Of a stretch of DNA of 32,000 nucleotides, positions 4,003 to 30,095 are shown in pieces. The number at the start of each line of letters is the position of its first letter. Positions within the stretch are counted from its first letter, which is position 1. The position numbers and the translations under genes were made by a program. This DNA is from Halosolutus amylolyticus (GTDB taxonomy: Archaea; Halobacteriota; Halobacteria; Halobacteriales; Natrialbaceae): positions 610,059 to 642,058 of the forward strand of contig NZ_JALIQP010000001.1 in the NCBI RefSeq assembly GCF_023566055.1, in the 5' to 3' direction. The notes below the pieces were generated by a model. The model was not told where the DNA came from. It did not search any database and saw only the letters and a list, made by a program, of their open reading frames with translations.

Positions 4003-4634
4003 TTTACGTTCTGCTCAACCACGTCTAATACACGCTGACTCGAATCGTCCTCCGGAAGCATCCTTCGCAACCGGTCGATGAGCGTCACGACCACTTCTGA
4101 CCCGAGATCGCCTGCAATATCTACGAGTCGATCCATATACGCCAACTGTATTTGCCCATCGACGCGGTGGAACGCTTCAACGAAGTGGTTCGGACAGTGG
4201 GACACCGTGTCGTCGACTTCCAGCGTCCATCGCGGCATTTGGTGACTTGGATCCGTGATCGCCCGATCGTCAGTGATGACCGCGGTTCCCAGCAACGCAA
4301 TTCCGACAAGCGTCGTTCGCTCCTCAATGTATCCTGGAGTGAACTGTGCCTGATCGTCTTGCGCTAATCGTGGCCCAGTTCGTCCCTGATCTGGATCCAC
4401 TAACTGCGTGTCGTAAATCACGCCGACAATCGCGTGTTCAGTCCCGTCAACAGTCTTCTTCATGAAGACCGGTTGCCCGAACTCGCGTTCGTGCAGTTCC
4501 GGCGGTCGGTCGCAGTCCCGTTCCTTGTACACCTCCGCGACGTAATCGAGGTGGCTGTTCGAGGACACGATGCTTCCGATCCGGACACACGAGTCTACGT
4601 CCGGTGAATCACTGGGTGTTGATGCGTTTGTCAT
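3969..4634 (-). CDS. hypothetical acidic protein (221 aa) between nurA-like and herA-like genes; N-terminus has a possible HAS-barrel/OB-like strand pattern
   Basis: ATG-initiated ORF in a coupled arrangement with herA. The N-terminal VRIGSIVSSNSHLDYVAEVY...FGQPVFMKK...HAIVGVIYDTQLV resembles the beta-barrel pattern at the HerA N-terminus. No family recognised. Confidence 0.6.
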   Translation of the reverse strand: MTNASTPSDSPDVDSCVRIGSIVSSNSHLDYVAEVYKERDCDRPPELHEREFGQPVFMKKTVDGTEHAIVGVIYDTQLVDPDQGRTGPRLAQDDQAQFTPGYIEERTTLVGIALLGTAVITDDRAITDPSHQMPRWTLEVDDTVSHCPNHFVEAFHRVDGQIQLAYMDRLVDIAGDLGSEVVVTLIDRLRRMLPEDDSSQRVLDVVEQNVKWQARQQRGVV

Positions 4635-4704
4635 AGATTTCGATTGGTGTTACTGCGTGTTGCTTGCTCAATGCGGGCTCCCGAGCCAATGCGATGAGCG
4701 ATCA

Positions 4705-5970
4705 TCATCGGCGGCGGAGTTCCTTACTGAGTGCTTTCGCGTTCCATTCGAGCGGCACGTCATTTGAGTCAGCCCACCGCTGGACAATCCGGTGGAACTG
4801 TTGACGATCTTGGTGATCGAGTACGGCGTCACTATCGGCCTGCTGGAGAATTTCAGGGTATCCCCGCCCGACACCGGCCTCTGCACGAACGATTTCAACA
4901 GTGTATTCGTACATCGAGTCATACCCAGCAGGCCCGTCGCTTCGACATAGCCAACCGGGGAACTCGATCCGGTCGAGACCGGCACCAGGCGGGACGTTCA
5001 GGTACGAAAATAGGATATCGTCCCGGAACTCGTACCGCTCGCCCTCATACGTCGTCTGTAACGCGTCAACACTCCCATCACGCTTCGATATAAACGGAAT
5101 CGTCGTATCGCCCCACGGACTCATCAACTCGGTCAAGACGTGCGCATCTGGGATGACGCGATCAGTCTCGAACTCATCCTGCAATAGGAGTCGCGTCATC
5201 TTCACGAGTTCAGTCGCGCTCGTGCCCGCAACGTATCCAACCAGCGGGATTTCGTGGTGTTGACTCGCCGCGATCACCCGGCTTAGCGTCGATATGTATC
5301 GATCGCGCGTCTCCGGCTTCAACGGATTCGCAAACGATGCGATCAGCGGCCCGTCATAGAACACGATCGGCGTGTGTTCTATGTCACCGGCATCACGAGC
5401 AGCTGCCAGGTTTACGAGTTGTTTGATGAGTAACGAGCCCTCGTATTCGAATCGGTGGTGGCCAACGAGTTGCGAATCGACGAACCGGTAATCTCCGTCC
5501 TCTGATTCCTGCGTGATCTCGTCGGGTGTCAACAGTCGCCCGTCGACACCTCGGTCGAGTCGCCCGTCGGCATGATGGTAATTGACCGCCCACGCCGCCT
5601 GCACGTACGCCAGAGGCACGTTGAACTCTGTAGTTGGTGGGAGTTGCGACCCGTCGACAGCCATAACCGGCACATCACGGAGAATCCCGCGCGCCCACTC
5701 GTTGATCTCCTCGTGGTTTTCCCACCCATCACTTTCGGAATGGGGGACAACGAGACTGCTAGCGGAATCGAACTCGTCGGTCGGGTACGCTCCAGGATAT
5801 GACGCCTGCTGTAACGCGTCACGTATCTTCTCGCTCGTCCACTCCTCAGGGAGCCGCTGGAACGCGTCTTGATACCGCTCGACGATCCCCGTACCATCGT
5901 CCAGATACGCTTCGATTGTCTCAACGCTGGACTCCAACTCGGCAGCAACCCCGTGTTTGTCGATCGGCAT
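4705..5970 (-). CDS. nurA: NurA-like 5'-3' nuclease
   Basis: Contains VMAVDGSQLPP (catalytic D-G-S strand), IVFYDGPLI and PLVGYVAGTSATELVKM, in the order expected for a NurA domain. Its start shares a TAATG junction with the rad50 stop (5968-5972). herA lies downstream. Confidence 0.65.
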   Translation of the reverse strand: MPIDKHGVAAELESSVETIEAYLDDGTGIVERYQDAFQRLPEEWTSEKIRDALQQASYPGAYPTDEFDSASSLVVPHSESDGWENHEEINEWARGILRDVPVMAVDGSQLPPTTEFNVPLAYVQAAWAVNYHHADGRLDRGVDGRLLTPDEITQESEDGDYRFVDSQLVGHHRFEYEGSLLIKQLVNLAAARDAGDIEHTPIVFYDGPLIASFANPLKPETRDRYISTLSRVIAASQHHEIPLVGYVAGTSATELVKMTRLLLQDEFETDRVIPDAHVLTELMSPWGDTTIPFISKRDGSVDALQTTYEGERYEFRDDILFSYLNVPPGAGLDRIEFPGWLCRSDGPAGYDSMYEYTVEIVRAEAGVGRGYPEILQQADSDAVLDHQDRQQFHRIVQRWADSNDVPLEWNAKALSKELRRR

Positions 5971-8681
5971 TAATTCACGGTCACCTCCGACGACTGCTGG
6001 TCCTTCTCCACGGTGACCGTGTAATCCGTCATCGAATCGAACGTCTGATCGTGGCTAATGACCGTAAGCTGTTCAAAACTGTCCAACTGCTTCAACTGCG
6101 TGACCAGATTCCGCTTCTTCTCCCGGTCCAGATTCGCCGTCGGCTCGTCGAGGAACGCCACCCCGACCGACGCCAACTGTTCAAGGATGGCAAGCCGTAC
6201 TGCAAGCGCAGCCGCCATCTTTTCACCGCCACTCAGCGTCGTGAACGACTTCCGCACGTCCGCATCGTGCACGACGATCTCGTAATCGCTCGTCCACTCC
6301 AGCGTCTCCGCGGATGCGCCACGGATCGTCCGGAACAACTCGTTCGCTCGTGTACCGATCCGATCCGTAATGATCTCACGCATCTTCGGCCCCGCTTCTC
6401 GCACGTTCTCCCGTACCCACGTAGCAAACTGCTGATCCGCTTTCAACTCCTTCAACTGCTGCAACTTCTCCTGGCGCTCCTCTAACTTCGCCTCTAACTC
6501 TTCGATTTCCTCTTGCGTCTCGGTCAGCGCTTCTTCTTTATGCTCTAATGACCGCCGATCACCAGCCAGTTCCTCTTTCAAGTCATCGATCTCTCCGTCA
6601 AGCGTCTCGAAGCGTTCTTCATCAAACGATGCTTGTGTCTCTTCCAGCTCAGCCTCCGTCTCTTCGAACTCGGCTTCGAGCTCCTCAAGGTCATCTTCCA
6701 ATTCCTCGACTCTCTCCCGACGTTCCTCAACTTGCGACGCCTGCTGCTCGTACTGTAGATACGTCTGATATGCCTCCTCCGTCTCTTCTAGCGTTTCCTC
6801 GACCTCAGCGATCTTCTCATCCAGCCCGTCGAACTCGTCTAACTCATCCTCAATCCAGTCAAGCACCGACTGTTCCTCTTCTAACTCAGAGCGCTTTTCT
6901 TCCAACTCCTCTGGTGCATCCGCGTGCTCGTCTACCCGGAACTCTGCCTTCTGGTACTCGTCATACGCCTCTTCCAAGTCATCACGTTCAGCTTCGAGGT
7001 CCGGGAGTTCCGCTAACTCGTCTTCTAACTCCGACAACTCCTCCTCAGTCCTCTCTTTCTCCTCACCGAGTTCGTCGAGATCGCCTTCTAACGACTCGAT
7101 CTTGTCCTGATGAAGAGAAATCTTCTCAACGCGCTGTTTGACCTCGTTCGCTGCCTCATGCCGCTCACGGAGCTTCTCAAGCTCTTCAGCAAGATCCGCA
7201 CGCTCCGCTTCAATCTCCTCAATTCGCTCTTCTCGCTGCTCAATCGTCTCCGACCGATGTTCTTCGTTTAATGGCTGATCACACGTCGGGCACGGCGCAT
7301 CAGCATCCGTATCACGCAACCGCTCTAACTGCTCTTCGAGTCGTTCCCGCTCGTTCTTCAGCTGTTTCCGACGAACCTCTTTGTCGTTAATCTCCTCCCC
7401 GATCTCGTCCGGATCCGTTGTCTCCGCCCACTCTTCTTCGATCTCGGCAATCGTCTCTTCTAACGACTCAATCTCCGCTTCCGTCTCCTCTATTTCTGCA
7501 GCGAGTTCCTCGATCTCCTGCTGGAATTCCTCGACGTCGTCTTCGCGGTCTTTCAGTGACTCAATCCGGTCATCCAGTTCCTCATACCGCTCCTTCTCAG
7601 TTTCAAGCGACTCTAACGTCTCTTGTGCTTCTTCCAGCGTCTCTGACTGCTCCTCAAGCTGCTCAACTCGGAACTCGATCGATTGAATCTCCTCTCTCTG
7701 TTCGTCGCGCTGGTCCTCAAGCGCGTCTCGCTCTTCCTCCTCCTCTTCTAACTCATCTAGTCGATCACTCGCATCCTGATACTGCTGATACCCGTCGCGG
7801 TTTGCCTCGCACTTGTCTTGGGCTTCCTCGGCAGCTTCAAGTTCCTCCTCAGCGCTTTCCAGTTGGTCCTCTGTCGCCTCGATTTCCTGATCCAAGGACT
7901 TAACCTCGTTTTCGAGGGACTCGATCTTCGCTTCGACAGCCTCTAACTCCTCATACTCTGCTTCTTTCTCCGATAACTCGGCCTCTTTCCGCTCGATACG
8001 CGCTTCGATCTCGTCAACTGCTTCAGCCAACGATTCTGCTTCCGCTCGTTCCTTCGGTAGGTTCTGCACTTCGCCAGTGAGCGTATCGATATCACTCCGA
8101 AGATCCTGCTGTTGCTTCTCAATCGCGTCCGGGATGTCTTTGAGTTGCTTCCACGATTCCTCGTACGCATCGAGATTCAGCAACGCGTCAAACGTCGATT
8201 TCCGATTCCGAGCCGTCTGCGAAAAGTCAGACAGGAACCGCGTCTGCGGGACCCCGATACACGACTCCCACAAGCTTCCTAACTCATCGCCATCCTCAAC
8301 GTCGAACCGAACGCATACCCAGTCCATCAACTGGCTTTTCGAATCGATGTCCTGGTCTATCCACTCATCACTTTCAGCGTCGTAGCGATGCACCCCGTAG
8401 TTCGACCGGCCAACCGACCTAGTAACTCGGAACCGCTCCGTCCCGTTTTCTGTGGGCGTGTCGAACGTGACCTCGACGGTCCCTGAGCTCGCGCCTTCTC
8501 GAACGAAATCCTTGTTGTTGAACGGCAGCGAATCGAATAACGCGAATCCGATCGCTTCCTGAATCGTTGATTTTCCTGCCCCGTTCTCACCGAGAATCGC
8601 CGTCACACCGCCCTCGATCGGTACCACTGTCCGGCCTTCGTACGACTTGATGTCTTCCAACGCGACTTCCGTGATTCTCAT
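5970..8681 (-). CDS. rad50: Rad50/SbcC-family SMC-like ATPase
   Basis: Walker A ILGENGAGKST. Very long E-rich coiled coil with a central zinc hook CPTC (7281-7292). Signature LSGGEKMAAALAVRLA and Walker B VAFLDEPTANLD. ATGA overlap with the mre11 stop (8678-8681). Confidence 0.9.
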   Translation of the reverse strand: MRITEVALEDIKSYEGRTVVPIEGGVTAILGENGAGKSTIQEAIGFALFDSLPFNNKDFVREGASSGTVEVTFDTPTENGTERFRVTRSVGRSNYGVHRYDAESDEWIDQDIDSKSQLMDWVCVRFDVEDGDELGSLWESCIGVPQTRFLSDFSQTARNRKSTFDALLNLDAYEESWKQLKDIPDAIEKQQQDLRSDIDTLTGEVQNLPKERAEAESLAEAVDEIEARIERKEAELSEKEAEYEELEAVEAKIESLENEVKSLDQEIEATEDQLESAEEELEAAEEAQDKCEANRDGYQQYQDASDRLDELEEEEEERDALEDQRDEQREEIQSIEFRVEQLEEQSETLEEAQETLESLETEKERYEELDDRIESLKDREDDVEEFQQEIEELAAEIEETEAEIESLEETIAEIEEEWAETTDPDEIGEEINDKEVRRKQLKNERERLEEQLERLRDTDADAPCPTCDQPLNEEHRSETIEQREERIEEIEAERADLAEELEKLRERHEAANEVKQRVEKISLHQDKIESLEGDLDELGEEKERTEEELSELEDELAELPDLEAERDDLEEAYDEYQKAEFRVDEHADAPEELEEKRSELEEEQSVLDWIEDELDEFDGLDEKIAEVEETLEETEEAYQTYLQYEQQASQVEERRERVEELEDDLEELEAEFEETEAELEETQASFDEERFETLDGEIDDLKEELAGDRRSLEHKEEALTETQEEIEELEAKLEERQEKLQQLKELKADQQFATWVRENVREAGPKMREIITDRIGTRANELFRTIRGASAETLEWTSDYEIVVHDADVRKSFTTLSGGEKMAAALAVRLAILEQLASVGVAFLDEPTANLDREKKRNLVTQLKQLDSFEQLTVISHDQTFDSMTDYTVTVEKDQQSSEVTVN

Positions 8682-10177
8682 TCGTTCACCACCTCCGCAG
8701 CCTCATCAGTCTCAGTACGTGACTCCTCACCCTCAGTTTCCGCAGCGTCACCATCCGCGAACGGATCCTCATCAATATCGAGGACGACGTCGTCAGCTAA
8801 CTCCGGGAACAGATCCCGCCGCGCTGAACTAACCGAGTCTTGGATGTCCTCAACCGCTTCTTCGGCTTGCGCCATCTGATGTGCGTCACCTAGCACGTCA
8901 GCTACATCCGACGCGTTCTCAGCGTACATTGACTCCTGCGCGATCGTCTCGAACACGCTATCCTCCAACGCTGCCGTGTTCAACTGACCGTCTTTGAACA
9001 CCTCTCCCTCATCAATCTCCGAGATGAGTTGCTGCACGTTCGCAGTCCGAATCCCAGTATTCACCTGAACGTACAGCGCTTCACACGTCTCTTCCGCGTA
9101 CGCCGCGAGTTCGTCTGTTCGGAAGTCCCCGCGGCTAAACTGCAGGGTTCCTGTGAACCGCAGATCAAGAATCGGATCTCGCGGCTCACCGCGCGCCGTA
9201 TACTTCGACTGCCCACAGTACTCCTTGACCGCCGACTGTTCGCCTTGCACGTGCTCCTGGAACGCCGACTCTAACTCGCCTGGCGACTCGTGCGGCGTCA
9301 CATCGAACTCGATACGGTAGTACGGCCGGCGCTTCGACTCGTGATGCGCCACCTCGTAGTTAACCGACTCATCGCTTCCGGACGCATCGGGACTCAGGTT
9401 CACCGAATAGTATCCGTGTTCCCAGTCATCCCGTCCTTCACGCGTATTGTGTGCTTCTGGTGAACCGGGGTTGTAGATCCAGTCACCGGCCTCGTACCGT
9501 TTGTGGATATGCCCGAGCGCAAGGTAATCCACGACCTCCTTTACCCCCCGCAGTTCGGTGTGCGTCACTGTCCCACCTAACGTCGGCACCTCGTCTTCCA
9601 TCCCGAAGTGCGCCAGCAATACCGTGAACGCCGGCTCACCGTACTCCTCGTTCGCTGCTTGGATCCCATTCGCCACTTGCTGAAGCGCCTTCCCCGTTTT
9701 CGCGCCACGCCACTGCAACCCGAACACACGAACCGGACCATCGAACTCCTCCCTATTGAGGTCATAGAACCCCGCGTACTCGCCCGGATCCTCGGGATCG
9801 TACGGTTCGAATCGAGCCGTATCCGGATCCGCATCCAGATCGGCTTTCAGGAAGACAACTTGACCGCGTTGGTGCAGGTAATTCAGCCACGTTACGTCAC
9901 GCGGCGTCAAATTCTCGTCGTGGTTCCCACGCGAAGCCAGGACTGGAACGTCGTCCGGTATCTGGTCGAGTTCTTGCTCGGTCTGATGGAGAACTTTTGG
10001 GCGGAGATCCCGAGAATGGAACAGGTCCCCTGGTAACACGATCGCCTCAGTCTCGCGCTTCTCAACCATTTCTTGGAAAGCGGTGCGTGTAGACGACACC
10101 ATGTCGTCCTCACGTTGGTTCAGTCCATACTGTCGATGGCCCAGGTGTGTGTCCGCGATGTGTCCAAATGTTAACAT
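8678..10177 (-). CDS. mre11: Mre11/SbcD-family calcineurin-like phosphoesterase nuclease
   Basis: Phosphoesterase motifs in order: GHIADTHLG, LPGDLFH, RGNHDE, LLAHFG, LGHIHK. Acidic C-terminal tail. Lies immediately upstream of rad50. Confidence 0.9.
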   Translation of the reverse strand: MLTFGHIADTHLGHRQYGLNQREDDMVSSTRTAFQEMVEKRETEAIVLPGDLFHSRDLRPKVLHQTEQELDQIPDDVPVLASRGNHDENLTPRDVTWLNYLHQRGQVVFLKADLDADPDTARFEPYDPEDPGEYAGFYDLNREEFDGPVRVFGLQWRGAKTGKALQQVANGIQAANEEYGEPAFTVLLAHFGMEDEVPTLGGTVTHTELRGVKEVVDYLALGHIHKRYEAGDWIYNPGSPEAHNTREGRDDWEHGYYSVNLSPDASGSDESVNYEVAHHESKRRPYYRIEFDVTPHESPGELESAFQEHVQGEQSAVKEYCGQSKYTARGEPRDPILDLRFTGTLQFSRGDFRTDELAAYAEETCEALYVQVNTGIRTANVQQLISEIDEGEVFKDGQLNTAALEDSVFETIAQESMYAENASDVADVLGDAHQMAQAEEAVEDIQDSVSSARRDLFPELADDVVLDIDEDPFADGDAAETEGEESRTETDEAAEVVNE

Positions 10178-10435
10178 TGTCGGTGAATCATAGATGGTCA
10201 GTGTTTCGCTGAGAGTGGTCCCAAATTACGCGACTGAACGTCTATGACTACATGAAACCGGATAGCTATTAAACGTCAGTTAACCAAAGTGGAAGTGAAA
10301 ATATAGACTCGTGACAATAGCCACCGCCGAGTTACCGGTGTCCCCTGTTCAAGTGTGATTCAGAGTACCAGCTACTCGGGTGGCACTCATGGAAACGCTC
10401 AAGCAACCAGAGATTGTTGGCCAATCCAGAATCAG

Positions 10436-10933
10436 ATGCCACGGATCGACCAAATAGACCGACGAACCGACGTGGTGTTCATTCTTTTCCACCATGCGGG
10501 ATCGATTCACGGCATCACGAAGCTCCAGAAACTCCTCTTCCTAGTTGAGGAGGAAACTGAGTTTTTCAAGGAATACGGCGACGAATTAGCTTTCGAGTTC
10601 ACCGCCCACAAAATGGGACCGTTCTCACAGCATGTTTATGAGGAAATTCGCTTCCTCCAGCAATTAAAGGCGATTGAGACAGAACCAATGCCGGGCGAAC
10701 CCGACGACGAAGCGTTAACAAACAAAGTGTTTCATATCACTCCGAAAGGAGAGAAAATAGCATCAGAACTATCAAATAGACTTGAAGACGAATACGATAA
10801 CGAGCTCAAAGAGTTAGTTGAGACATATAACTCAATGAAGCTGCGAGAACTACTTCGATACGTCTACAAGGAATATCCCGCGTTCACAACAGAATCAGAG
10901 ATCAAGGATGAGATATTAGCAGAGGCCTCATAA
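10436..10933 (+). CDS. GepA/SocA (DUF4065, Panacea)-like winged-helix protein, possible antitoxin or regulator
   Basis: GITKLQKLLFLVEEE...FEFTAHKMGPFSQHVYEEI matches the KLxKLLYf...w.yGPv..vy pattern of COG3600/DUF4065. The track start (GTG at 10355) adds 27 non-acidic residues, so I prefer the ATG at 10436. The stop shares a TAATG junction with the next gene. Confidence 0.5.
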   Translation: MPRIDQIDRRTDVVFILFHHAGSIHGITKLQKLLFLVEEETEFFKEYGDELAFEFTAHKMGPFSQHVYEEIRFLQQLKAIETEPMPGEPDDEALTNKVFHITPKGEKIASELSNRLEDEYDNELKELVETYNSMKLRELLRYVYKEYPAFTTESEIKDEILAEAS

Positions 10934-11424
10934 TGAGTACAGAAGATCTGATCCGAACAATCCAAGTTGAAGAAAATAAAGCAACAACCGGTAGCGAAAA
11001 CGAATTTTACATCCCAGAAAAATATCAGTTAGGTATTTTAACAGACCATCTCAAAACCCACGGCTTTGAGTACACGACAGAGGGGCGCATATTCTGTTAC
11101 CCTATCGATATTCTATGCGCTCGTGGAGAGACAACTGTTGCAATTGAAATGAAGGCAGACAAAGTAAGTCGGGGAATTGATCAGGCATGGCGGAACACAG
11201 ATTTTGTTGATTTCTCCTACCTCGCAGTGTGGGAAGAACGAGTGACTGACTCCCTGATCGAACGTGTTGAGGAGACTCCAGTCGGCTTGTATGCGATTTC
11301 AGAAGACGTAGAACAAGTCTCTACACCCCAAAAAACAGGGGAACAATTATGTAGCCGGAGTGTCGTGTTCTCCTCAATAGAAGATAATGTTCGAAACGAC
11401 ACTTCGGTACAACAGCCTGAATAA
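10933..11424 (+). CDS. PD-(D/E)xK nuclease-fold protein (Hjc/Mrr-like core)
   Basis: 11101-11160 encodes PIDILCARGETTVAIEMKAD, i.e. D-x13-E-x-K. An upstream acidic helix (SENEF/PEKY) and a downstream Q (IDQAW) are also present. The 163-aa size fits archaeal Hjc-type resolvases and minimal restriction-endonuclease folds. Confidence 0.6.
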   Translation: MSTEDLIRTIQVEENKATTGSENEFYIPEKYQLGILTDHLKTHGFEYTTEGRIFCYPIDILCARGETTVAIEMKADKVSRGIDQAWRNTDFVDFSYLAVWEERVTDSLIERVEETPVGLYAISEDVEQVSTPQKTGEQLCSRSVVFSSIEDNVRNDTSVQQPE

Positions 11425-12643
11425 CAAGCATGCCGTCGAAGGAGAATACCCTCGGTACGATTCGCTCATCATCGACGGGAAGATGCTCGCTTATTCTAAA
11501 AAGGCACTTCCGCAACTCATCCAGAACCTGAATCAAGAGCGAAGTCTAGATTACTACATTGATCCGATAATCTCTGACTTCAGAACAGGAGATAATTTCA
11601 GGTATTCTGACGGCACAATACGAGGATGGTACGACAGCTACGTGGGAGAATTAGGAGACCCCCTGAAGCAAACTCTATTTGAGTTCGATAACGTGAACCC
11701 TCGTCACTTAGACGAGGAAACTATTCGCGGGATCAGCAGGTCAGTCGTCCTCTATCAAGAGAACTTTGTTGCAACTCAACTGGAAGAGGAATCGGGAAAA
11801 TACGAAGAGGTTGACCCCACCGAAGTAACGCCAAAAGCCGTAATCCCATGGCATCACCGCATCAACGAGAAAGCGGATCTAGGACCTAATAGAACAATTC
11901 TAGACACAGCAGCAGCTGAGGCTATGCTTCCTCTCAAACCGTGCATCCACACAACCAAGTCGTTCATCCGAGACCGCTCAAATAGAGCAAGCTTAGTTGA
12001 GTTGGTACAGGCCTATGATGTGAACAAGTGCTTCTTATTGATCGAAGAACTTGGGAAACACGACACCTACGAAAGCACCTATAGAGACGTTATCGACCTC
12101 GTCTACGATATTTCTGAAACAGGAATTAAACCCCATTTCTACTACGGAGATTACTTCTCAAATCTTCTCTCCTACTTCGGATTAGGTGGAACAACATATG
12201 GCGTAATGTATGGCGAAGAGTACACTGAAACCACAGAATATACCGATCAGAGCGGGATGCTTCTCCGATACTATGTAGATCAGATCAAAGACTTCCTCAA
12301 GGTACCTGCAGCAGTCGAGTTGATGAAACGAACAGACTCTACGATGTGTGAATGCGACATCTGTCAGCGCCATTATGACGACTGGAACGAGATCATAGCA
12401 CACCAAGAGAGCGATGAACCCCTCATGAACCATCTCCAGAAACACTACGTAGAAAAGAGATGGCGTCACGCACGCCAGGTAGAAGAAAAATCGTTTGACA
12501 CGGTTCTGTCGGAACTAGAATCCGATTATGAGGAATACGTCTACCCATATACAAACGCCCGGCAAATAAGCCCCAACAAGAACTTCGATTACCTCCCTCG
12601 ATGGATTCACGCGATCAAGGACCGGGCAGAGCTCGCGGAATAA
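11387..12643 (+). CDS. hypothetical protein with a CxCxxC...H motif (possible TGT/DpdA-like fold)
   Basis: 418-aa acidic ORF that overlaps the previous gene by 38 nt (alternative ATG at 11483). 12347-12445 encodes CECDICQRHYDDWNEIIAHQESDEPLMNHLQKH. No other family motif recognised with confidence. Confidence 0.65.
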   Translation: MFETTLRYNSLNNKHAVEGEYPRYDSLIIDGKMLAYSKKALPQLIQNLNQERSLDYYIDPIISDFRTGDNFRYSDGTIRGWYDSYVGELGDPLKQTLFEFDNVNPRHLDEETIRGISRSVVLYQENFVATQLEEESGKYEEVDPTEVTPKAVIPWHHRINEKADLGPNRTILDTAAAEAMLPLKPCIHTTKSFIRDRSNRASLVELVQAYDVNKCFLLIEELGKHDTYESTYRDVIDLVYDISETGIKPHFYYGDYFSNLLSYFGLGGTTYGVMYGEEYTETTEYTDQSGMLLRYYVDQIKDFLKVPAAVELMKRTDSTMCECDICQRHYDDWNEIIAHQESDEPLMNHLQKHYVEKRWRHARQVEEKSFDTVLSELESDYEEYVYPYTNARQISPNKNFDYLPRWIHAIKDRAELAE

Positions 12644-12890: not shown

Positions 12891-13130
12891 TCACTCGGAT
12901 GGATCATTGATCGGCGGCCGTAAGTCACGCCAGCGGAAGTCGGCTTCCTCACCGGAATTAAAGGCGACTCGATATAGACGAGAATCCCGTGTATCATTGG
13001 TGACCGAACTCGCATCATCAGTTAGCACTGCAGTGATACGGCCGTGCTCTCCGTGATACAGTTCGTAGTCCGGATCAGTCTCATCAGGAATATCAATCCG
13101 AACGCGATCGTCAACTGAAAAGCGTTGCAT
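12891..13130 (-). CDS. small acidic hypothetical protein (79 aa from ATG), composition typical of small haloarchaeal proteins; family not identified
   Basis: MQRFSVDDRVRIDIPDETDPDYELYHGEHGRITAV...YRVAFNSGEEADFRWRDLRP. The track start at 13157 is TTG. The ATG at 13130 has an A/T-rich box (aactaattga on the minus strand) about 25-35 nt upstream. Confidence 0.6.
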   Translation of the reverse strand: MQRFSVDDRVRIDIPDETDPDYELYHGEHGRITAVLTDDASSVTNDTRDSRLYRVAFNSGEEADFRWRDLRPPINDPSE

Positions 13131-13218
13131 TTGTGTTGTGTATGGTGTTGGCCTCAATTAGTTTCTGCAGTTGGTCTACCTCTGGCGGCGTTCATCTATA
13201 GTCACGTCAACGGTATAC

Positions 13219-13225
13219 CTTTATG
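13219..13225 (+). promoter_or_regulatory. TATA-like box for the mcrB-like gene
   Basis: ctttatg is centred about 30 nt upstream of the ATG at 13252, in the 121-bp divergent spacer. Confidence 0.3.
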
Positions 13226-13251
13226 TGGTTCCTGTGACGATTCCTGACAAG

Positions 13252-16200
13252 ATGACTACTACGCCTTCGTCTTTGGATCTGAAGCAGTTGGTAGAAAAAT
13301 ATATTGACGATCATGACTGGGGGCGAGATAAGGCCCATGTTCAGAATACGTCGGAAGCAGTCCGTCAACTGGTTGAGGGGCTCGTCGAAACAGGTTCTAT
13401 CGACGAGTCGGCGATGCGAACGGTGTACAATCTGTGTCAGAACGATAACGCCCTAAAACCAGAGACGAAAAAGCAGCGGATTGACGATCTCGATATCGAC
13501 GCTAACACAAAAGCTCCCATCAAGGAACGGATCGACGAAGGAACAGGTATCATCGGGAAAGGCACCTACTCTGTACCGATTGAAGGATATGAGGAGGAAG
13601 CGTTCAGCCTTCTTGCTACGGCAATCAGGTCCGATGACCGGACTGAGATTGACGCAGCAATTGAAGAGTTCGCTGCCCTCGAAATCGAAGGGATACAGAA
13701 CGGAATCATTTCTCCAATCCTCTACTTTCTCCACCCAACAAAATACCCGATCAGTAACGACCGTTCACGAACCGGAATGCAGCAGTTCTTCAACTACGAG
13801 ATGTCTGGTCGCCTCACAGCTTACCTTGATGAGGTAGAGCGATTCTATGAGGTTCGAGCTAACTATCCGTTCAAAGAGGATTTCCGGCATCTGGATAGTT
13901 TCTTCAATTGGATCGAACAACAGGAGTCTCCATTAACTGAGTCAACTTCGACGCCACACGTTGAGATCCCCAGTGATGTAGAAATTTACTGGGTGAATCA
14001 GCACAATCCATCTGAAATTGAGGAGGAATATCTTAGAGCAAAGACCGATGGTCTCTGGCATCACAACCTACCGAAATTGTCTGTCGGAGATGTAGTCTTC
14101 CACAACTTCGACAATGAACTCATTGGCATTTCCACTGTAGCTGATACTGCTGAAACGTACACATCACGGGGCGAGGAATACTATCGAGTAGAGGTTGATC
14201 TGCGCTCGTTCGGTAAGCCAGTGGTTGTTGACGATGACCTCAAGGAAAGACTCGGGCAAGACGATCATCGTTTAGAGAAGTATTACCCAATCGATAAGAA
14301 CGAGAATCTCAACGAAGCATATTTGGCGAACCTATCCCGGTCTGCTGCGGAGTTTCTGTTAAGCCAAGTAGATTCGGTTGAGGCAACCAAACCCTCCGAC
14401 AAAGCTTCAGACGCTCCGAAACGAATCTGGCAAATCACGCCTGCGAGAGGCGGCACATACTGGGAGACGTGGGAGCAAACCGGAATCGCGTCTATCGGAT
14501 TCGGACTCGACCACAAGATAACGGACGACGTAGAGGACATTGACGACGTGGACGAGTTATCCGAAGAGGAACTCGTCGAGATTGCTGCAGACACCGGCGA
14601 CAACCACGGTCGTGGTATGGCTTACCGGTTCCAGTACGAGATCGACGAAGGTGACGTGATAATCGCAAAACAGGGACGGCGTTCGACATCAGAACCAGAC
14701 GTAATCTATGGAATTGGAGTTGTTACCACTGATCATCACGAGAAAGACTTCTCTGAGATCCATCACACAAGCATCGTTGATGTTGACTGGAAAGTGACTT
14801 TCGGGCAAAGTGGAGTAGACGTGACTGTCGATAGTGATTCTGATTCGATCAAAGCCTACACACTTGATACGCTCGACCCCGAATACTACCACCAACTAGC
14901 ATCTGAACTCGCCGTAGAGGGCGACACGGACCTTGATGAGCTTCTCGCCCTCGTCTTTGATGAGTCAACTGGCATCGATGAGAGCGAAATAGTAACGGCG
15001 AGCGAGGGTGCGGACTACTTCTGGATCTCTGCTAACCCCGCGATTTGGGAAGTCGACAGCATCAAAGACGGTGGTGAGGTTTTCTATACTGCGTACAATC
15101 GCAAGGGGAACAAACGCCGAATCTTCGGCGCATTCGAGGAAGCTGCTCCCGGCGATAAGGTACTGTTCTACGAGTCTCACCCAGTCCAAGCTATCGTCGC
15201 AGAGGGTACGATCGTGGAGGGACTTCACGAAGGAGAACACGAAAAGTACGACAACCCGGTCAAGGGGATTACCATTGAGTACAGCCGCCCCATCGAAAAC
15301 ATCTCGTGGGAGCAACTCACCGCAGTTCCTGATATTGAGGGGGCCGCACCCATTAAAAACCGAGCTCAGGGAAGTCTCTTCCCACTCACCGAAGACGAAT
15401 TCGAAACTATCCTCGCATTAGAAGACCCGATCAAAGATGGTGTCTCACAAGACGCAATCGACCAACTTACAGCGAAACTCACCACTCCTGAGATCGAAAT
15501 AACCGTCCCCGACAGCCTCTACTTCGACAATAACGATCGGCTGCGACGCGAAATCGAAGCCTCACTACGGTCTGGAAAACACATTATTCTCACCGGTCCG
15601 CCTGGAACCGGGAAAACCAAACTCGCCCAAGCAATCTGTGAATCTGCAACGACCTACGAACAAGTCGATGACTACCGGTTCACGACCGCCACATCCGAAT
15701 GGACCGCCTTCGACACAATCGGTGGATACGTCCCATCCACGAGCGACGGGGGTCAGAAACTCCTCTTCGAACCCCGTCTCTTCCTCAAGTGCTTTCGACG
15801 AGACCGTGTAGTCAATGAGTGGCTCATCATCGACGAAATCAACCGCTCAGATATCGACAAAGCGTTCGGTCAGCTCTTCTCAGTCCTCTCTGGCGATTCA
15901 ACTGAACTCCCCTACGAACGGGATCGTACCGTCGAACTCCTCTCACTATCAGAATCGACGACCGACGAAGAACTCGCAGACATCATTGGAAATCCGGACG
16001 CCTTCCCGGTGACACCATCCTGGCGGTTAATCGCCACAATGAACACGTACGACAAAACCTCGCTGTACGAAATGTCGTACGCGTTCATGCGACGCTTCAA
16101 TTTCATCCACGTTGGTGTCCCGCCGCTCACTAACGACGGCGAGGTCCGAACGTCACTCCTCGATCCAAACGGAGCTGATAACTACGCGACCGCCTGGCTT

Positions 16201-16563
16201 GACGACGACGAGACGCTCCGCCCAGTTCTCCAAGACATCTACCCAGTCATCGCGGTCCTGTGGCAACGCATCAACGAACACCGCGTTATCGGCCCATCAA
16301 TCGTCTACGACATTATCCGGTACCTCGAATCATACAACGACACCGATGGCGAGCATATCAATGCCCTCACGTCCGCCGTCGTCTCACTCGTGTATCCACA
16401 ATTGGAAGGCATGCGGCCTGAACAGCAGAAACGACTAATCCGATCACTCACCGATACAAACGTCGCTACCGAAAACGGTTCTGTTAACCTGAATCTCGAC
16501 GGAGAGCGACTCCGACAGCAAGCATCTGATTTCTTCGGCATCACCTTCACGGATGACTCGTAA
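13252..16563 (+). CDS. mcrB: McrB-family AAA+ (GTPase-type) restriction subunit with an extended N-terminal reader region
   Basis: The C-terminal AAA_5/McrB core has HIILTGPPGTGKTKLAQAI (Walker A, about 15595-15618), WLIIDEINRSDIDKAFGQLFSVL (Walker B, about 15823-15843) and WRLIATMNTYDKTSLYEMSYAFMRRFNFIHV. The track start at 13171 is TTG and adds 27 hydrophobic, non-acidic residues, so I prefer the ATG at 13252. Confidence 0.85.
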   Translation: MTTTPSSLDLKQLVEKYIDDHDWGRDKAHVQNTSEAVRQLVEGLVETGSIDESAMRTVYNLCQNDNALKPETKKQRIDDLDIDANTKAPIKERIDEGTGIIGKGTYSVPIEGYEEEAFSLLATAIRSDDRTEIDAAIEEFAALEIEGIQNGIISPILYFLHPTKYPISNDRSRTGMQQFFNYEMSGRLTAYLDEVERFYEVRANYPFKEDFRHLDSFFNWIEQQESPLTESTSTPHVEIPSDVEIYWVNQHNPSEIEEEYLRAKTDGLWHHNLPKLSVGDVVFHNFDNELIGISTVADTAETYTSRGEEYYRVEVDLRSFGKPVVVDDDLKERLGQDDHRLEKYYPIDKNENLNEAYLANLSRSAAEFLLSQVDSVEATKPSDKASDAPKRIWQITPARGGTYWETWEQTGIASIGFGLDHKITDDVEDIDDVDELSEEELVEIAADTGDNHGRGMAYRFQYEIDEGDVIIAKQGRRSTSEPDVIYGIGVVTTDHHEKDFSEIHHTSIVDVDWKVTFGQSGVDVTVDSDSDSIKAYTLDTLDPEYYHQLASELAVEGDTDLDELLALVFDESTGIDESEIVTASEGADYFWISANPAIWEVDSIKDGGEVFYTAYNRKGNKRRIFGAFEEAAPGDKVLFYESHPVQAIVAEGTIVEGLHEGEHEKYDNPVKGITIEYSRPIENISWEQLTAVPDIEGAAPIKNRAQGSLFPLTEDEFETILALEDPIKDGVSQDAIDQLTAKLTTPEIEITVPDSLYFDNNDRLRREIEASLRSGKHIILTGPPGTGKTKLAQAICESATTYEQVDDYRFTTATSEWTAFDTIGGYVPSTSDGGQKLLFEPRLFLKCFRRDRVVNEWLIIDEINRSDIDKAFGQLFSVLSGDSTELPYERDRTVELLSLSESTTDEELADIIGNPDAFPVTPSWRLIATMNTYDKTSLYEMSYAFMRRFNFIHVGVPPLTNDGEVRTSLLDPNGADNYATAWLDDDETLRPVLQDIYPVIAVLWQRINEHRVIGPSIVYDIIRYLESYNDTDGEHINALTSAVVSLVYPQLEGMRPEQQKRLIRSLTDTNVATENGSVNLNLDGERLRQQASDFFGITFTDDS
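13975..14238 (+). other. PUA/EVE-like module 1 within the McrB-like protein
   Basis: VEIYWVNQHNPSE...LSVGDVVFHNFDNELIGISTVADTAE...YYRVEVDL: an aromatic-W start, then a GD-hydrophobic strand, then a hydrophobic-G-hydrophobic strand. Confidence 0.4.
14419..14810 (+). other. PUA/EVE-like module 2 within the McrB-like protein (contains an acidic insert)
   Basis: KRIWQITPARGGTYWETWEQTGIASIGFG...EGDVIIAKQGRR...VIYGIGVVTTDHHE...IVDVDWKV. Confidence 0.4.
15013..15420 (+). other. EVE-like module 3 within the McrB-like protein
   Basis: DYFWISANPAIWEVDSIKDGGEVFYTAYN...RRIFGAFEEAAPGDKVLFYESHPVQAIVAEGTIVEG...ITIEYSRPIENISWEQL. This is the closest of the three to the EVE pattern yWl..nP..w....GD.v.fY.s....ivg.g.v. 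Confidence 0.6.
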
Positions 16564-17911
16564 GCTCACCGCTGACGACCTCGTCGACGCTACTACCGAA
16601 GAGTTACTCACCTATCTTCGGACCGGCGCGTTAAACACGCAAGCGCTCACCCACTCCCTCAATTACGAAGGCCTCGATATCGAGGACTGGGATCGCCTCA
16701 AACGCATCCACTTCTGCCTCACTGACGACGTTCACAACTTCATTACTGCACTCCCAGACCGCGTCCGGCGCATCAAAACCGAACACCAGCGCGAACACCT
16801 CCAAACCCGCGGTGAAATTCGCGGCTCAATCAACTGGGGCTCAACCCTTCGAGTTCAATCCGAAACCGGTTACGCCGACCGTAGCCAATTCGTCTGCAAC
16901 ACTCCCTACACCGAATACGACATCCCCGAAAACCGAGTTCTGAAACGTCTTCTCTGGGAAATCCACCGAACCGTCACGAAAGAACTTCAGAGCATCGAGT
17001 ACGAGTGGCGACGAGAAAACTGGACTGACGACCAACTCACCCAGTTCACACGGTTATACAAACAAAACGTCCACCTCAACCGCATCACTGACGGTCAATC
17101 AATCTCTGTCTCTGGGAAAGACATGAACGCGGCTCGACGATCACGCCTCTCGATTTACTCCGACGCATACGACCTCTACGACAAATACCAACGCCTCCAA
17201 TCCGACACCTTCGACCCAGACATCACCGACCTCCTTGCTGAAACACTCGTCATCCCAACCGAGACACCAACACTATTCGAACTGTTCTGCTGTTTCCGCA
17301 TTATCCGAATACTCGATCGCCGCGTTCCTGGGTTCTCACTTCACCCCATCGACGGGCAAAGCAACGCCCTTGCTCACCTCGAATCAGACGAGACACGCAT
17401 CGAAATCTACCACGACAGCACCGGAAACCTCAGCTTCCATGAACCACTCAACCCAGAACACCGACCGACACACCCTTCGTTCGCCCGCTACCACGATGCC
17501 CTCACCGACTACAGCAACACCCTCGAAACCCTCACCGGCAACTCCCACGACCCCGTCCTCTACAGTGGCCGCCCCGACCTCATCATCGAAATCTACGACA
17601 CCACAGCCGACGATCAACTCGTCTCCGTCCTCCTCGGCGAAATCAAACACTCAAACACGACACAAACCTTCAAACAAGGCCTCGAAGAACTCCTCACATA
17701 CCGCCAATTCGCCAACCATGATGGGTACCTCATCGACGACCCAGACGTCACAGTCACCACCCTCCTCATCACAAACGGCGTCACAACTTCAGGCGAAAGC
17801 AGCACCGTCACCCATCTCGACGGAACGGACCTACTTACTCCGCAATCAGAACAACCCCACGATTGGATCAACTTACTCACCGACCCACTTGCCAACCTCA
17901 ACCAAGCATAG
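16553..17911 (+). CDS. mcrC: McrC-like PD-(D/E)xK nuclease subunit
   Basis: Overlaps the mcrB-like stop by 11 nt. The C-terminal GRPDLIIEIYD...VLLGEIKHS (17576-17647) is a PD...ExK motif. Size and position match McrC. Confidence 0.7.
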   Translation: MTRKLTADDLVDATTEELLTYLRTGALNTQALTHSLNYEGLDIEDWDRLKRIHFCLTDDVHNFITALPDRVRRIKTEHQREHLQTRGEIRGSINWGSTLRVQSETGYADRSQFVCNTPYTEYDIPENRVLKRLLWEIHRTVTKELQSIEYEWRRENWTDDQLTQFTRLYKQNVHLNRITDGQSISVSGKDMNAARRSRLSIYSDAYDLYDKYQRLQSDTFDPDITDLLAETLVIPTETPTLFELFCCFRIIRILDRRVPGFSLHPIDGQSNALAHLESDETRIEIYHDSTGNLSFHEPLNPEHRPTHPSFARYHDALTDYSNTLETLTGNSHDPVLYSGRPDLIIEIYDTTADDQLVSVLLGEIKHSNTTQTFKQGLEELLTYRQFANHDGYLIDDPDVTVTTLLITNGVTTSGESSTVTHLDGTDLLTPQSEQPHDWINLLTDPLANLNQA

Positions 17912-18072: not shown

Positions 18073-18552
18073 ATGAGTGAGGCTACCACAACCTGTGATC
18101 AGTGCGGGATAGAGATACCAACCGAGGAAGAGCAAATCACCATCTACCCAGAGACGTACTGCTTCGACTGTTTCGACGGCGACTGTGCTCGCTGCGGTGT
18201 TGATATTAGCGATGCCGATGATCGAGTACAGAAATTTGATGATTATTTTTGTACAGAATGCGCCGAGCGGTTATGCTACAACTGTGGAAAACACATCGAG
18301 GATTTAGATAATCGGAACGTGATCCGAGGACTCGTTCGTTGTAATCAGTGTAAATGGCATATGCTCGGCAATCTTTGCTGTGGTTGTGGGACAGATATTT
18401 CGAATTCAACTCAAAAAGTGGCTGCGGGAGGGACACACCGATACTGCGCTGATTGTAAGAAAGATTTACCCGATGATGTGGAAATCGAGGAATACCCCTT
18501 CGATTTTGAGTCTCCCAACGACAATAACGAGGAACAAGACGCGCCATTCTGA
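18073..18552 (+). CDS. cysteine-rich protein built of four tandem zinc-ribbon (CxxC...CxxC) repeats with an acidic tail
   Basis: Four units: CDQCGIEI..x..CFDC, CARCGVDI..x..CTEC, CYNCGKHI..x..CNQC, CCGCGTDI..x..CADC. Acidic C-terminus DFESPNDNNEEQD. A/T-richer than the neighbouring genes. Confidence 0.7.
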   Translation: MSEATTTCDQCGIEIPTEEEQITIYPETYCFDCFDGDCARCGVDISDADDRVQKFDDYFCTECAERLCYNCGKHIEDLDNRNVIRGLVRCNQCKWHMLGNLCCGCGTDISNSTQKVAAGGTHRYCADCKKDLPDDVEIEEYPFDFESPNDNNEEQDAPF

Positions 18553-18685: not shown

Positions 18686-19672
18686 CTACACCCACGCGAG
18701 TGACGCGTTGTGCTGCGCAAGGTACTCCGGATTCAGGATCTTATTTCGAAGCGGGACTCGTTCACCGTCTTGCTCGATAATCGTTCGCTGTAACAACTCG
18801 CTTTGCGTCTTGAACGACGGATTTACGTGCAGTCGGTAGTCTCGATCGATCGTGAACAGGCCACGGTCGAACGCAGCGTGATGCGTCTTACTCAGCGGGA
18901 GTACGTTCATCAAATCCGCCCTGTACTCCGGGTAGTCACTCCACGATAATACGTGAGCCACGTCCAACAACCCAGGGTGATCAACACCCGAGATCGGGCA
19001 TTCTTGGTCATGACGCGAAATCACCGTCGCACGGAACTCAGGATCAACCGCACGAGCGTGAATCGTCGTCGCGTACGTCCCAGCACTCATTACCTCGTCG
19101 TCCATTGACGGCGCCCAGTCTGAATCACCCCATTCCGCAACAGCGTTCTCGACGAACGACCGGCCTTCATTCGTCAACATGAACGCGTCGCCTCGCTCCT
19201 CGACGAGCCCCATGCTCCGCAACCAATTCACTCGCTGACGAGCCATATCCGTCTCCCCACGACTCCACCCTAACTCCGGATGCGTATCCAACTGCTGGTC
19301 ACTCACCTCCCCAAGCGTCATCGGCCCAGCCGACAACGCATACAGCAGACTCCGAAGCCCAACATTCCGATCACACATAATGCGAAGCAACGTCCCCACA
19401 TCACCCTGCTCAATGTACTCACGGCCAGGATCACCGAGTCCCCAATGGTCGTTCGTCTGGCGGAGGAACCCGACCTGCTGTAAATAACTCACCCGGCGCA
19501 TAATCGAGTCCCGACTCGACACGTTCTGGAATGAACCACGATGCCACCCTACGAGTTCATCCGTCGTCGGGTGATGCGCCGCCACGAACTCAAGCACCGC
19601 ATCCAACGTCTCAACATACCGCGTCCTACCACCGAACATCGGGACAATACTACGCAGACGATTCGGAGCCAT
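18686..19672 (-). CDS. HNH (HNH_2-type) endonuclease with tandem N-terminal winged-helix domains
   Basis: The C-terminus CPISGVDHPGLLDVAHVLSWSDYPEYRADLMNVLPLSKTHHAAFDRGLFTID fits the HNH_2 pattern (aaHI.p...NgL.L...H..FD.g). The N-terminus contains an internal duplication (RRVSYLQQVGFLRQTNDHWGLGDPGREYIE / QRVNWLRSMGLVEERGDAFMLTNEGRSFVE). Confidence 0.85.
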   Translation of the reverse strand: MAPNRLRSIVPMFGGRTRYVETLDAVLEFVAAHHPTTDELVGWHRGSFQNVSSRDSIMRRVSYLQQVGFLRQTNDHWGLGDPGREYIEQGDVGTLLRIMCDRNVGLRSLLYALSAGPMTLGEVSDQQLDTHPELGWSRGETDMARQRVNWLRSMGLVEERGDAFMLTNEGRSFVENAVAEWGDSDWAPSMDDEVMSAGTYATTIHARAVDPEFRATVISRHDQECPISGVDHPGLLDVAHVLSWSDYPEYRADLMNVLPLSKTHHAAFDRGLFTIDRDYRLHVNPSFKTQSELLQRTIIEQDGERVPLRNKILNPEYLAQHNASLAWV

Positions 19673-22373: not shown

Positions 22374-22687
22374 ATTGATGAATGCTACTGATGTTGGCAG
22401 CTGTTTAATTATTCTGCTTTGTAAAGTGGAGCCGAATGTAAATAAGCTAGAATAAAACGTTCTGTCAATATTTCTTCGCACTACTTCCCGTCACATCGAT
22501 CTGTAATCATTTAGCCTATACAAACAGAACAGGCGTGTCGTACTCGCCGTGATTTGTGTTGTCTCCACCCGAACATATACCGAGACCCGTTCCCGAATGG
22601 CTGGTTCTGCCTACCTAAGGAATCATTATAATTTTGATTTTGTAAGTTGATCTCCTATTAAGGTAAATCATCAAGAAATATATTTTC

Positions 22688-28773: not shown

Positions 28774-29291
28774 TTTTTAACCTGGATAACTGTGGTGAAC
28801 GGCGTAGTCTCTAATTCTTTACCATTTACGTATATGTGCTGTCCTTCAACCGTGGCGTCGGCCAGCACAACTGCCTTCTTCTCGTTCTGCGCGATCCTCT
28901 GAACTGCAGGAATCAAATCGAAGTCATATCGAAGCGCGACCTCAAACCTCTCTAACATTACGAGAGAGGCAGGTTCAAACTGTTCTTGGAGAATAGACTC
29001 AGTGGCATCAGAGATCCTCTGACGGATATGCTTAGGTTCGCCAGTAGTTCGTTCTGCCATCACCAACTGCTCGTAATCTTCTTGCTTCGTCACCAACTCA
29101 CTAACGGATTTATTCAAATTGACAACTGGGAACCCATGTGCGTCCGCTATCTGACCCTTGACTGCTTTGTCAAGAAGATCGCGCTCTCCAACAATCAACC
29201 AGACTTCTTTCCCACCGTCGCCTTCAGCGTGGCTCTCCAGAGCATCAGCGAGTTCCGGCAACCGCATCTCGTAATTTGAGAGCTCGGTCAT
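28770..29291 (-). CDS. brxB: BrxB-like (DUF1788-like) small protein
   Basis: 173 aa, immediately upstream of and overlapping brxC, which is the canonical brxB position. Loose resemblance to the DUF1788 layout (KEVWLIVGERD...GFPVVNLNKSVSELV early, a hydrophobic VVLADATVEG strand late). The assignment rests mainly on context and size. Confidence 0.5.
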   Translation of the reverse strand: MTELSNYEMRLPELADALESHAEGDGGKEVWLIVGERDLLDKAVKGQIADAHGFPVVNLNKSVSELVTKQEDYEQLVMAERTTGEPKHIRQRISDATESILQEQFEPASLVMLERFEVALRYDFDLIPAVQRIAQNEKKAVVLADATVEGQHIYVNGKELETTPFTTVIQVKK

Positions 29292-29298
29292 GGTCTAC

Positions 29299-30090: not shown

Positions 30091-30095
30091 GTGTA

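Follow-up and report, generated by a model that had tools for sequence, protein, structure and literature searches.

Three adjacent plus-strand genes at positions 10436-12643 of a 32,000-nucleotide (nt) stretch of the Halosolutus amylolyticus genome, hereafter the window, are the subject of this study. They encode a Panacea/SocA-domain protein (gene 1, 10436-10933, 165 residues), a predicted PD-(D/E)xK nuclease (gene 2, 10933-11424, 163 residues) and a protein whose modelled fold places it, as a very divergent member, in the tRNA-guanine transglycosylase (TGT) superfamily (gene 3, 11387-12643, 418 residues); the three products are identical to WP_250138958.1, WP_250138959.1 and WP_250138960.1, respectively. 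Homologues of these genes keep the same order in all loci with sufficient upstream DNA, from haloarchaea to distant metagenomic lineages in which the same core normally carries an additional, exchangeable gene. The cassette most likely represents a self-contained and mobile conflict module, of either the anti-virus or the toxin-antitoxin-like kind.

The three genes are tightly packed. The TAA stop codon of gene 1 (10931-10933) and the ATG start codon of gene 2 (10933-10935) share a nucleotide in a TAATG junction (10931-10935) that is read directly from the plus strand, and a segment of 38 nt (11387-11424) is shared by genes 2 and 3. This overlap is real, because the N-terminus of the gene 3 product, MFETTLRY, is conserved, with F2, E3 and Y8 invariant in 31 homologues; the same nucleotides also encode the conserved V153 and R154 of gene 2 and make up an unusually constrained dual-coding segment. 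The corresponding overlap in other haloarchaea ranges from 8 to 65 nt, being mostly of 35-41 nt. At least 65 full-length homologues were found for each of the three open reading frames (ORFs), which are therefore genuine genes and not chance ORFs. The original prediction, made from the letters of the window, had described three plus-strand genes with this junction and this overlap, divergent from mre11 and richer in A/T than the flanks, and all of it was confirmed: G+C content is 0.43-0.47 over 10.5-12.5 kb as compared with 0.55-0.59 in rad50/mre11. Low G+C persists past the cassette, in the remainder of the defence island. The same prediction had gene 1 begin at 10355, a GTG that is only the mechanical start of the ORF; the true start is the ATG at 10436, since all homologues start MPRIDQIDRRTD and the NCBI protein WP_250138958.1 has 165 residues. 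Repeats in the 258-nt region upstream of the cassette were examined and revealed no convincing operator, and the window contains no tRNA genes.

Gene 1 had been recognized as a DUF4065/Panacea protein and indeed scores above the curated cut-off of the Pfam SocA_Panacea model PF13274 (29.4 bits, cut-off 25.7; E 1.7e-6; profile positions 1-109 of 113), its name at NCBI being SocA domain-containing antitoxin. It also matches phrog_14939 (E 7e-17), the N-terminal half only of PADLOC PDC-M19A (positions 4-133 of 294; E 1.3e-16) and, weakly, the C-terminal toxin-binding region of DarG (PADLOC E 2.5e-5; NCBIfam E 7e-5). For Panacea proteins, an antitoxin function has been validated by experiment: they neutralize diverse toxins, RNases among them, by direct binding, their partners being chiefly translation inhibitors and membrane disruptors (PMC8832971). 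The C-terminal part of the gene 1 product (window positions 10811-10966, approximately residues 126-177 of the 192-residue ORF) additionally shows a weak match to Lamassu LmuC (PADLOC E 2.6e-4) and another to the ABC-3C 'middle component 2' (Pfam E 0.04). LmuC and the ABC-3C middle component 2 are small adaptors in defence systems with exchangeable effectors.

No meaningful match of gene 2 to the family models of Pfam, NCBIfam, PADLOC or PHROGs was obtained. Its AlphaFold2 (AF2) model, with a predicted local distance difference test (pLDDT) score of 80.8, has by the order of its secondary structures a restriction-endonuclease-like alpha/beta core, and a Foldseek search of the PDB retrieved 3dnx as the best match (E 1.2e-7) followed by SfsA, AF1548, PaqCI, Hjc and Can2. 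The earlier description of this product as an Hjc/Mrr-like protein thus holds as regards a small PD-(D/E)xK protein, Hjc being among its fold matches but not the best of them. The catalytic motif, P57-x-D59-x12-E72-x-K74, is encoded at 11101-11154 on the plus strand; it had been given as D-x13-E-x-K at 11101-11160, so that its presence was rightly noticed and its spacing and end have been corrected. Alignment of 28 haloarchaeal homologues revealed invariance of this motif (P57, D59, E72 and K74) as well as of E29 (11017-11019), E50 and Q84 (11182-11184), and D59, E72, K74 and Q84 are also invariant in 51 of 51 unique distant homologues. A hidden Markov model (HMM) for the gene 2 family recovers the equivalent gene in distant cassettes with E-values of 1e-16 to 1e-33, and a distant homologue shows a weak match to the MmcB-like family of Pfam. 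By its predicted fold and an intact motif with an upstream Glu, gene 2 is a member of the PD-(D/E)xK superfamily, and this fold together with the invariance of the catalytic residues leads us to take its product as a putatively competent nuclease.

Gene 3 had been considered as lacking a recognizable family, with the exception of a zinc-type motif. Sequence models indeed retrieve nothing: there is no match in Pfam, NCBIfam, PADLOC or PHROGs, with no TGT (PF01702) at E <= 0.1; 38 distant relatives do not match TGT models at E <= 0.01; and the family profile does not retrieve any TGT among PDB sequences at E <= 10, where matches to designer PPR repeat proteins were discarded as spurious. Structure prediction nonetheless assigns the protein, which has 65 full-length haloarchaeal homologues, to a superfamily. 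Its AF2 model (pLDDT 90.9; predicted TM-score, pTM, 0.91) is a (beta/alpha)8 barrel of eight strands alternating with helices, followed by a cysteine-rich zinc subdomain and a helical C-terminal tail. The best Foldseek match in the PDB is 1iq8 (ArcTGT; E 2.7e-6), followed by 7owz (the eukaryotic queuine enzyme, QTRT), 1j2b, 1q2r (bacterial TGT) and many others, these TGT matches having a probability of 1.00, TMq values of 0.47-0.52 and more than 420 aligned columns, as compared with TMq values of about 0.3 for generic TIM barrels. The zinc-type motif noticed before turned out to be the CxCxxC...H site of TGTs: it reads C321-x-C323-x2-C326 ... H353 (12347-12445, plus strand), hhalign pairs residues 318-329 with residues 299-310 of E. 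coli Tgt (C302, C304, C307), and the histidine lies 27 residues past the last cysteine as compared with 26 in Tgt. In two sets of 66 and 44 homologues, H353 shows no variation and the cysteine ligands hardly any. On the basis of the modelled fold and this zinc site, gene 3 is a very divergent member of the TGT superfamily, and two of its relatives carry in UniProt the automatic name 'tRNA-guanine(15) transglycosylase-like domain-containing protein'.

The active site of this protein is more elusive. In TGT and DpdA three aspartates are reported as invariant, acting as general acid/base, base-recognizing residue and nucleophile, respectively (PMC10164549). When the gene 3 family was aligned by hhalign to a small alignment of bacterial Tgt proteins the zinc motif alone was aligned, and active-site residues are therefore not mappable by sequence. 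The order of the strands in the model suggests as plausible candidates D59 (11561-11563; within YYIDP, at the end of strand 3) for the general acid/base and E277 (12215-12217; within YGE), which lies 44 residues before the zinc motif as compared with 38 in E. coli Tgt, for the nucleophile. No candidate for the base-recognizing aspartate was found in the alignments of 66 and 44 sequences.

The cassette is conserved as a unit. Searches with the three family HMMs found genes 1, 2 and 3 in this order and on one strand in the 14 of 14 haloarchaeal loci for which sufficient upstream DNA was available. An exhaustive profile search collected 626 clusters of gene 3 proteins at 50% identity (E <= 1e-3), its members coming from Asgard and Thermoproteota genomes as well as from one or more bacterial phyla; a pattern scan of species genomes, in which narrow patterns were used, recovered 7 loci. 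The gene 3 proteins of the distant clade are about 20% identical to the window protein, and 42 of the 62 metagenomic loci analysed in this clade have sufficient upstream sequence. All 42 encode a Panacea protein, then a PD-(D/E)xK protein and then the TGT-like protein, normally with a middle gene directly after the Panacea gene, just one of these loci lacking a middle ORF of at least 100 residues; the four-gene arrangement also occurs in four more loci from genomes and metagenomes. In about 23 loci the product of the middle gene has 2-4 predicted transmembrane segments, and in about 16-18 it has a PIN domain (Pfam PIN, E 1e-12 to 1e-16); haloarchaeal cassettes lack this gene. The three genes had been read as one candidate module, these counts bear out a conserved unit, and gene 3 homologues occurring alone or in metabolic contexts, an observation that would have spoken against it, were not encountered in any examined locus. 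The swappable fourth gene of other lineages, however, shifts the picture from a triad to a core with an exchangeable effector.

In a metagenome representative (P0235) the nuclease and the TGT-like protein are naturally fused in a 560-residue polypeptide, with an N-terminal PD-(D/E)xK domain (residues 36-118 match the gene 2 HMM, E 7e-13) followed by a full TGT-like domain, which argues that both proteins act together physically. A Panacea antitoxin gene is expected in a tight operon with a toxin partner not more than 100 nt away, conserved across species, and the TAATG junction, the kept gene order and the PIN or transmembrane neighbour of the distant clade all conform to this. Natrononativus amylolyticus has a second Panacea-family gene (L008:5911-6402, minus strand; E 1.3e-19 against the gene 1 HMM), which lies roughly 600 nt upstream of the cassette on the other strand.

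The genes flanking the cassette vary between genomes and none of them is conserved. As listed, these neighbours are often integrases or genes of restriction and other defence systems. Haloferax gibbonsii has an HNH gene beside type I restriction-modification genes; Haloarcula has an MmeI-type enzyme and SIR2; Natrononativus has SRA-HNH and type I restriction-modification genes; Halovenus has a C5 methyltransferase together with integrases and a provirus of pleolipovirus-like type; a Halorientalis plasmid has an Eco57I-type methyltransferase and HicA; and Haloarcula sediminis has Mrr. In the window itself, McrBC-like, GmrSD and BREX (bacteriophage exclusion) genes follow the cassette. Integrases lie beside four loci (L002, L009, L010 and L011) and immediately adjoin two distant cassettes. 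Plasmid records place the cassette on three Haloarcula plasmids and it is also carried by one Halorientalis plasmid; a query from the distant clade found nothing in the plasmid records. A tblastn search of 50,697 phage records with a haloarchaeal and a distant gene 3 protein retrieved no relative, and IMG/VR contains no member of the haloarchaeal clade. Two IMG/VR contigs (62 and 72 kb, about 60% G+C) do carry the four-gene form (L090:3589-6620 and L091:2815-5822), with a Panacea protein of about 215-223 residues, a PD-(D/E)xK protein of 137 and a TGT-like protein of 451, a 202-residue gene occupying the middle slot in the first of them; both cassettes lie less than 8 kb from the contig end and may be either prophage cargo or flanking host DNA. 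The cassette was found outside provirus replication modules, so that the possibility, raised beforehand, of ordinary replication or recombination genes of a provirus did not materialize.

Two ties to the immediate surroundings of the window cassette were considered and rejected. A functional tie to mre11/rad50 was discarded since none of the other 14 haloarchaeal loci adjoins these genes, and a tie to the neighbouring BREX cluster, an idea prompted by published 'BRC' systems that reportedly contain a TGT, was discarded since PglZ and BrxC genes are absent from all other loci. Therefore, both adjacencies in the Halosolutus window are incidental.

Taken as a whole, these data have about an even chance, in our judgement, of being explained by one self-contained, horizontally mobile conflict module, either for anti-virus defence or of the toxin-antitoxin kind, whose general design includes a nuclease/TGT-like complex restrained by the Panacea protein. 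The invariant nuclease residues, the strict pairing of the two genes and their fusion point to a complex of both proteins acting on nucleic acid. Within it an active PD-(D/E)xK nuclease would be physically associated with the TGT-like protein, which would recognize a flipped-out base in nucleic acid, a purine or 7-deazapurine, and might also act on it chemically. The Panacea gene always comes first and is coupled to the next gene, and its product is most simply viewed as a neutralizer or adaptor that silences a harmful activity; by analogy with Panacea antitoxins elsewhere, this protein, translated first through the TAATG junction, would bind the harmful component and restrain it until a trigger is perceived. 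Exchangeable effectors are typical of defence systems, and the slot after the Panacea gene looks like the exchangeable effector position of many of them. In other lineages, the same core would also control the product of this slot as a second effector, either a PIN RNase or a protein of the pore or membrane type. The haloarchaeal version would either have lost this extra effector or never have had it, and the nuclease itself would therefore be the effector in these organisms. The suggestion made earlier from the window, that the first protein may gate a nuclease and the third may serve as sensor or modifier, is in keeping with these data.

Several observations weigh against this interpretation or parts of it. 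D59 of gene 3 is kept by 56 of 66 and by 42 of 44 sequences, N or Q taking its place in 3 of 31 haloarchaeal homologues; for E277 the corresponding counts are 59 of 66 and 35 of 44, the other 9 of the 44 distant sequences having a replacement. Since the candidate catalytic residues are not invariant, the gene 3 protein may be a non-enzyme, or our mapping of these residues may be wrong. Among the relatives grouping with the haloarchaeal proteins, three divergent ones (P0062, P0063 and P0065) do not have the three zinc cysteines and keep H353; the zinc site can evidently be lost. The only zinc-less member with known context (L007:320-3122) belongs to a four-gene form with a membrane protein. In an activated-sludge metagenome (L079:5172-7308) a 270-residue Panacea gene directly precedes the TGT-like gene and no nuclease gene was detected. 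As to the genomic neighbourhoods, some loci (L004 and L025) have no recognizable defence neighbour, and the frequent defence genes and integrases at the flanks come from a plain listing of neighbours, so that any enrichment of defence genes is putative.

The best surviving alternative, which we regard as possible and yet unlikely, is a pure addiction or toxin-antitoxin module that stabilizes plasmids and integrated elements and takes no part in virus defence, its toxin being either the nuclease or a TGT-like enzyme that removes or replaces guanine or archaeosine in tRNA. The PanA-PanT pairs described by Kurata et al. (2022; PMC8832971) are among the closest known systems. In these, too, the Panacea gene comes first, directly upstream of and coupled to genes for potentially harmful proteins, most validated Panacea-paired toxins act on translation or membranes, and the gene that follows in our distant clade encodes a PIN RNase or a membrane protein, the most-reported PanT classes. 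tRNA is moreover the ancestral substrate of TGTs, and the integrases at four loci and the plasmid-borne cassettes would suit an addiction function. However, the Panacea gene of the cassette always comes with two more conserved genes and the haloarchaeal form has no classical PanT; the survey of Kurata et al. covered operons of at most three genes and makes no mention of a transglycosylase (PMC8832971). Three to four conserved components exceed the needs of a toxin-antitoxin pair, restriction and other defence genes are frequent neighbours, and the nuclease/TGT-like pair is kept alongside a separate PIN or membrane toxin; this pair is therefore not merely another toxin. Roles in addiction and defence are, in any case, mutually compatible.

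The fold of gene 3 also brings to mind Dpd restriction-modification, in which DpdA, a TGT homologue, inserts dPreQ0 into DNA and thereby marks it as self for the restriction system (PMC10164549; PMC12839542). According to a model of this kind, the TGT-like protein would insert host preQ0, the precursor of archaeosine, into the DNA of the cell itself, the nuclease would cut unmodified incoming DNA and the Panacea protein would only tune the nuclease. Both systems encode a TIM-barrel protein of the TGT superfamily together with one or more nucleases in a defence context (DpdA, PDB 7ui4; PMC10164549), the gene 3 protein has the zinc site of TGTs, the nuclease gene always adjoins and was once found fused to the TGT-like gene, and a virus-encoded DpdA alone can draw on the preQ0 pool of the host (10.1101/2021.05.26.445827). 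Nevertheless, we find this model rather improbable. No DpdB, DpdC or preQ0-synthesis genes lie beside any of about 70 loci, and the gene tables of 13 annotated loci and of the window contain neither dpdB (a ParB-like ATPase), dpdC and dpdD-K nor preQ0-synthesis genes. The Pfam TGT model remains unmatched, the three aspartates reported as invariant in TGT and DpdA have no invariant counterparts mapped in gene 3, strand order giving candidates for two of them, and the 50 best fold matches of this protein do not include DpdA (7ui4). Dpd has, in turn, no Panacea gene or toxin slot, so that the obligatory Panacea protein and the exchangeable PIN or membrane toxin would be left unexplained, and a modification enzyme fused to its own restriction nuclease would be unusual without separate control.

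It is tempting to speculate on the reverse relationship with modified DNA. Haloarchaeal tailed viruses such as HVTV-1 carry 7-deazaguanines and thereby escape restriction (10.1101/2021.05.26.445827). The TGT-like protein, which would descend from an enzyme family with native binding of such bases, could conceivably be a reader of, or a glycosylase for, 7-deazaguanine-type bases in viral DNA that directs the partnered or fused nuclease to that DNA, in what would be a modification-dependent restriction held in check by the Panacea protein. In other lineages the Panacea adaptor would also unleash the PIN or membrane toxin, adding abortive infection as a second layer. This more specific version of the conflict module is a rather long shot in our estimation. 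It would resemble type IV restriction enzymes and the anti-virus DNA glycosylases Brig1 and Dag1/Dag2 (10.1101/2025.10.29.685425) in the possible coupling of modified-base reading to DNA cleavage, and would differ from them in that a TGT-like fold is undescribed as a reader and the Panacea gate with its exchangeable toxins has no counterpart there.

Finally, that the genes serve housekeeping or provirus functions, either as a repair accessory of the herA-nurA-rad50-mre11 operon or as replication and recombination genes of an integrated virus, is very improbable despite the position of the cassette 258 nt away from the divergent mre11 gene (8678-10177, minus strand), the nearest Pfam family to the distant nuclease homologues, which is 'DNA repair protein MmcB-like', the two IMG/VR contigs and the pleolipovirus-type provirus near one locus (L009), since the other 14 haloarchaeal loci are all away from mre11/rad50, the G+C content falls by about 0.12 exactly at the mre11 boundary, relatives are missing from the phage records and the haloarchaeal clade from IMG/VR, both IMG/VR cassettes lie close to a contig end, and the distribution is patchy, as is typical of accessory genes.

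Other known systems share single traits with the cassette. Type IV CBASS (cyclic oligonucleotide-based antiphage signalling system) combines Cap10, a TGT-like protein, with the QueC-like Cap9 and thus also employs a TGT scaffold with a remodelled active site against viruses (10.1101/2025.04.06.647259); unlike the cassette, it relies on a Cap10 that acts on a protein N-terminus, to which nothing points in the case of gene 3, and no QueC-like or CD-NTase gene occurs in or near any examined cassette locus, where PADLOC found no CBASS component either. DarTG has a partner enzyme whose target is a DNA base, and the C-terminal toxin-binding region of DarG matches gene 1, but the cassette has neither a DarT ADP-ribosyltransferase nor a macrodomain, and gene 1 scores 22 bits as compared with a family cut-off of 250. 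The resemblance to PADLOC PDC-M19 is confined to the match of gene 1 to PDC-M19A, genes 2 and 3 and 35 distant relatives matching no PADLOC model.

The surroundings of the cassette in the window deserve a brief description. On the side of mre11, the low-G+C island starts exactly at the end of a canonical archaeal operon on the minus strand (2326-10177) composed of herA (DUF87/HerA), a gene for a 221-residue protein without family, nurA, rad50 and mre11. Directly downstream of the cassette, an ORF for an acidic protein of 88 residues (12891-13157, minus strand) has no family match and is not conserved beside the cassette in other genomes. Next on the plus strand is a gene (13171-16563) for a protein of 1130 residues, in which approximately 600 N-terminal residues are without family assignment, residues 616-749 form an EVE domain and residues 804-976 a GTPase domain of the McrB type (AAA_5). 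A partner gene for 452 residues (16553-17911), which shows only a very weak McrC match (E 0.05), overlaps it by 11 nt; together the two genes (13171-17911) probably encode a McrBC-type system of modification-dependent restriction in which the partner is unusual. A cysteine-rich protein of 159 residues with weak matches to DUF1272, LIM and DksA-type zinc fingers (18073-18552, plus strand) is encoded between this pair and the gene for an HNH_2 protein with a winged-helix region (18686-19672, minus strand). The remainder, all on the minus strand, consists of GmrSD (19899-22481) and a BREX-type cluster (22688-31703) with PglZ (22688-24874), a BrxC-like protein of 1300 residues (24871-28773), two genes without family (28770-30090) and a PglX-like methyltransferase (30096-31703).

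The kinds of domains in the cassette are known; what appears to be new is their multi-gene combination, of the defence or toxin-antitoxin type, on a Panacea control element, together with a new TGT branch. Searches of a library of papers for the triad combination, PDC-M19 and the locus tags found no description, in agreement with the earlier statement that the triad was not recognized as a named defence system. Pfam, NCBIfam, PADLOC and PHROGs offer no curated model for the gene 3 family, PADLOC having none for gene 2 either. Substrates of the TGT superfamily fall into three established classes: tRNA (TGT, ArcTGT), DNA (DpdA) and the N-terminus of a protein (Cap10). The gene 3 family adds to these a fourth, very divergent branch with fixed nuclease and Panacea partners. 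If our proposal is true, the Panacea domain would go beyond the simple two-gene antitoxin and control a system of several components in which the effectors are exchangeable, and, if the cassette is a defence system, it would be a widespread and unnamed addition to archaeal immunity, whose repertoire is poorly charted. This is directly testable in Haloferax gibbonsii LR2-5, a native carrier of the cassette with a known virus, in which the cassette consists of HfgLR_01330 and the two genes preceding it, HfgLR_01335 being the nuclease. Should the TGT-like protein read or remove 7-deazaguanines, it would represent a direct answer of the host to a common anti-restriction strategy of its viruses and a new class of modification-dependent restriction.

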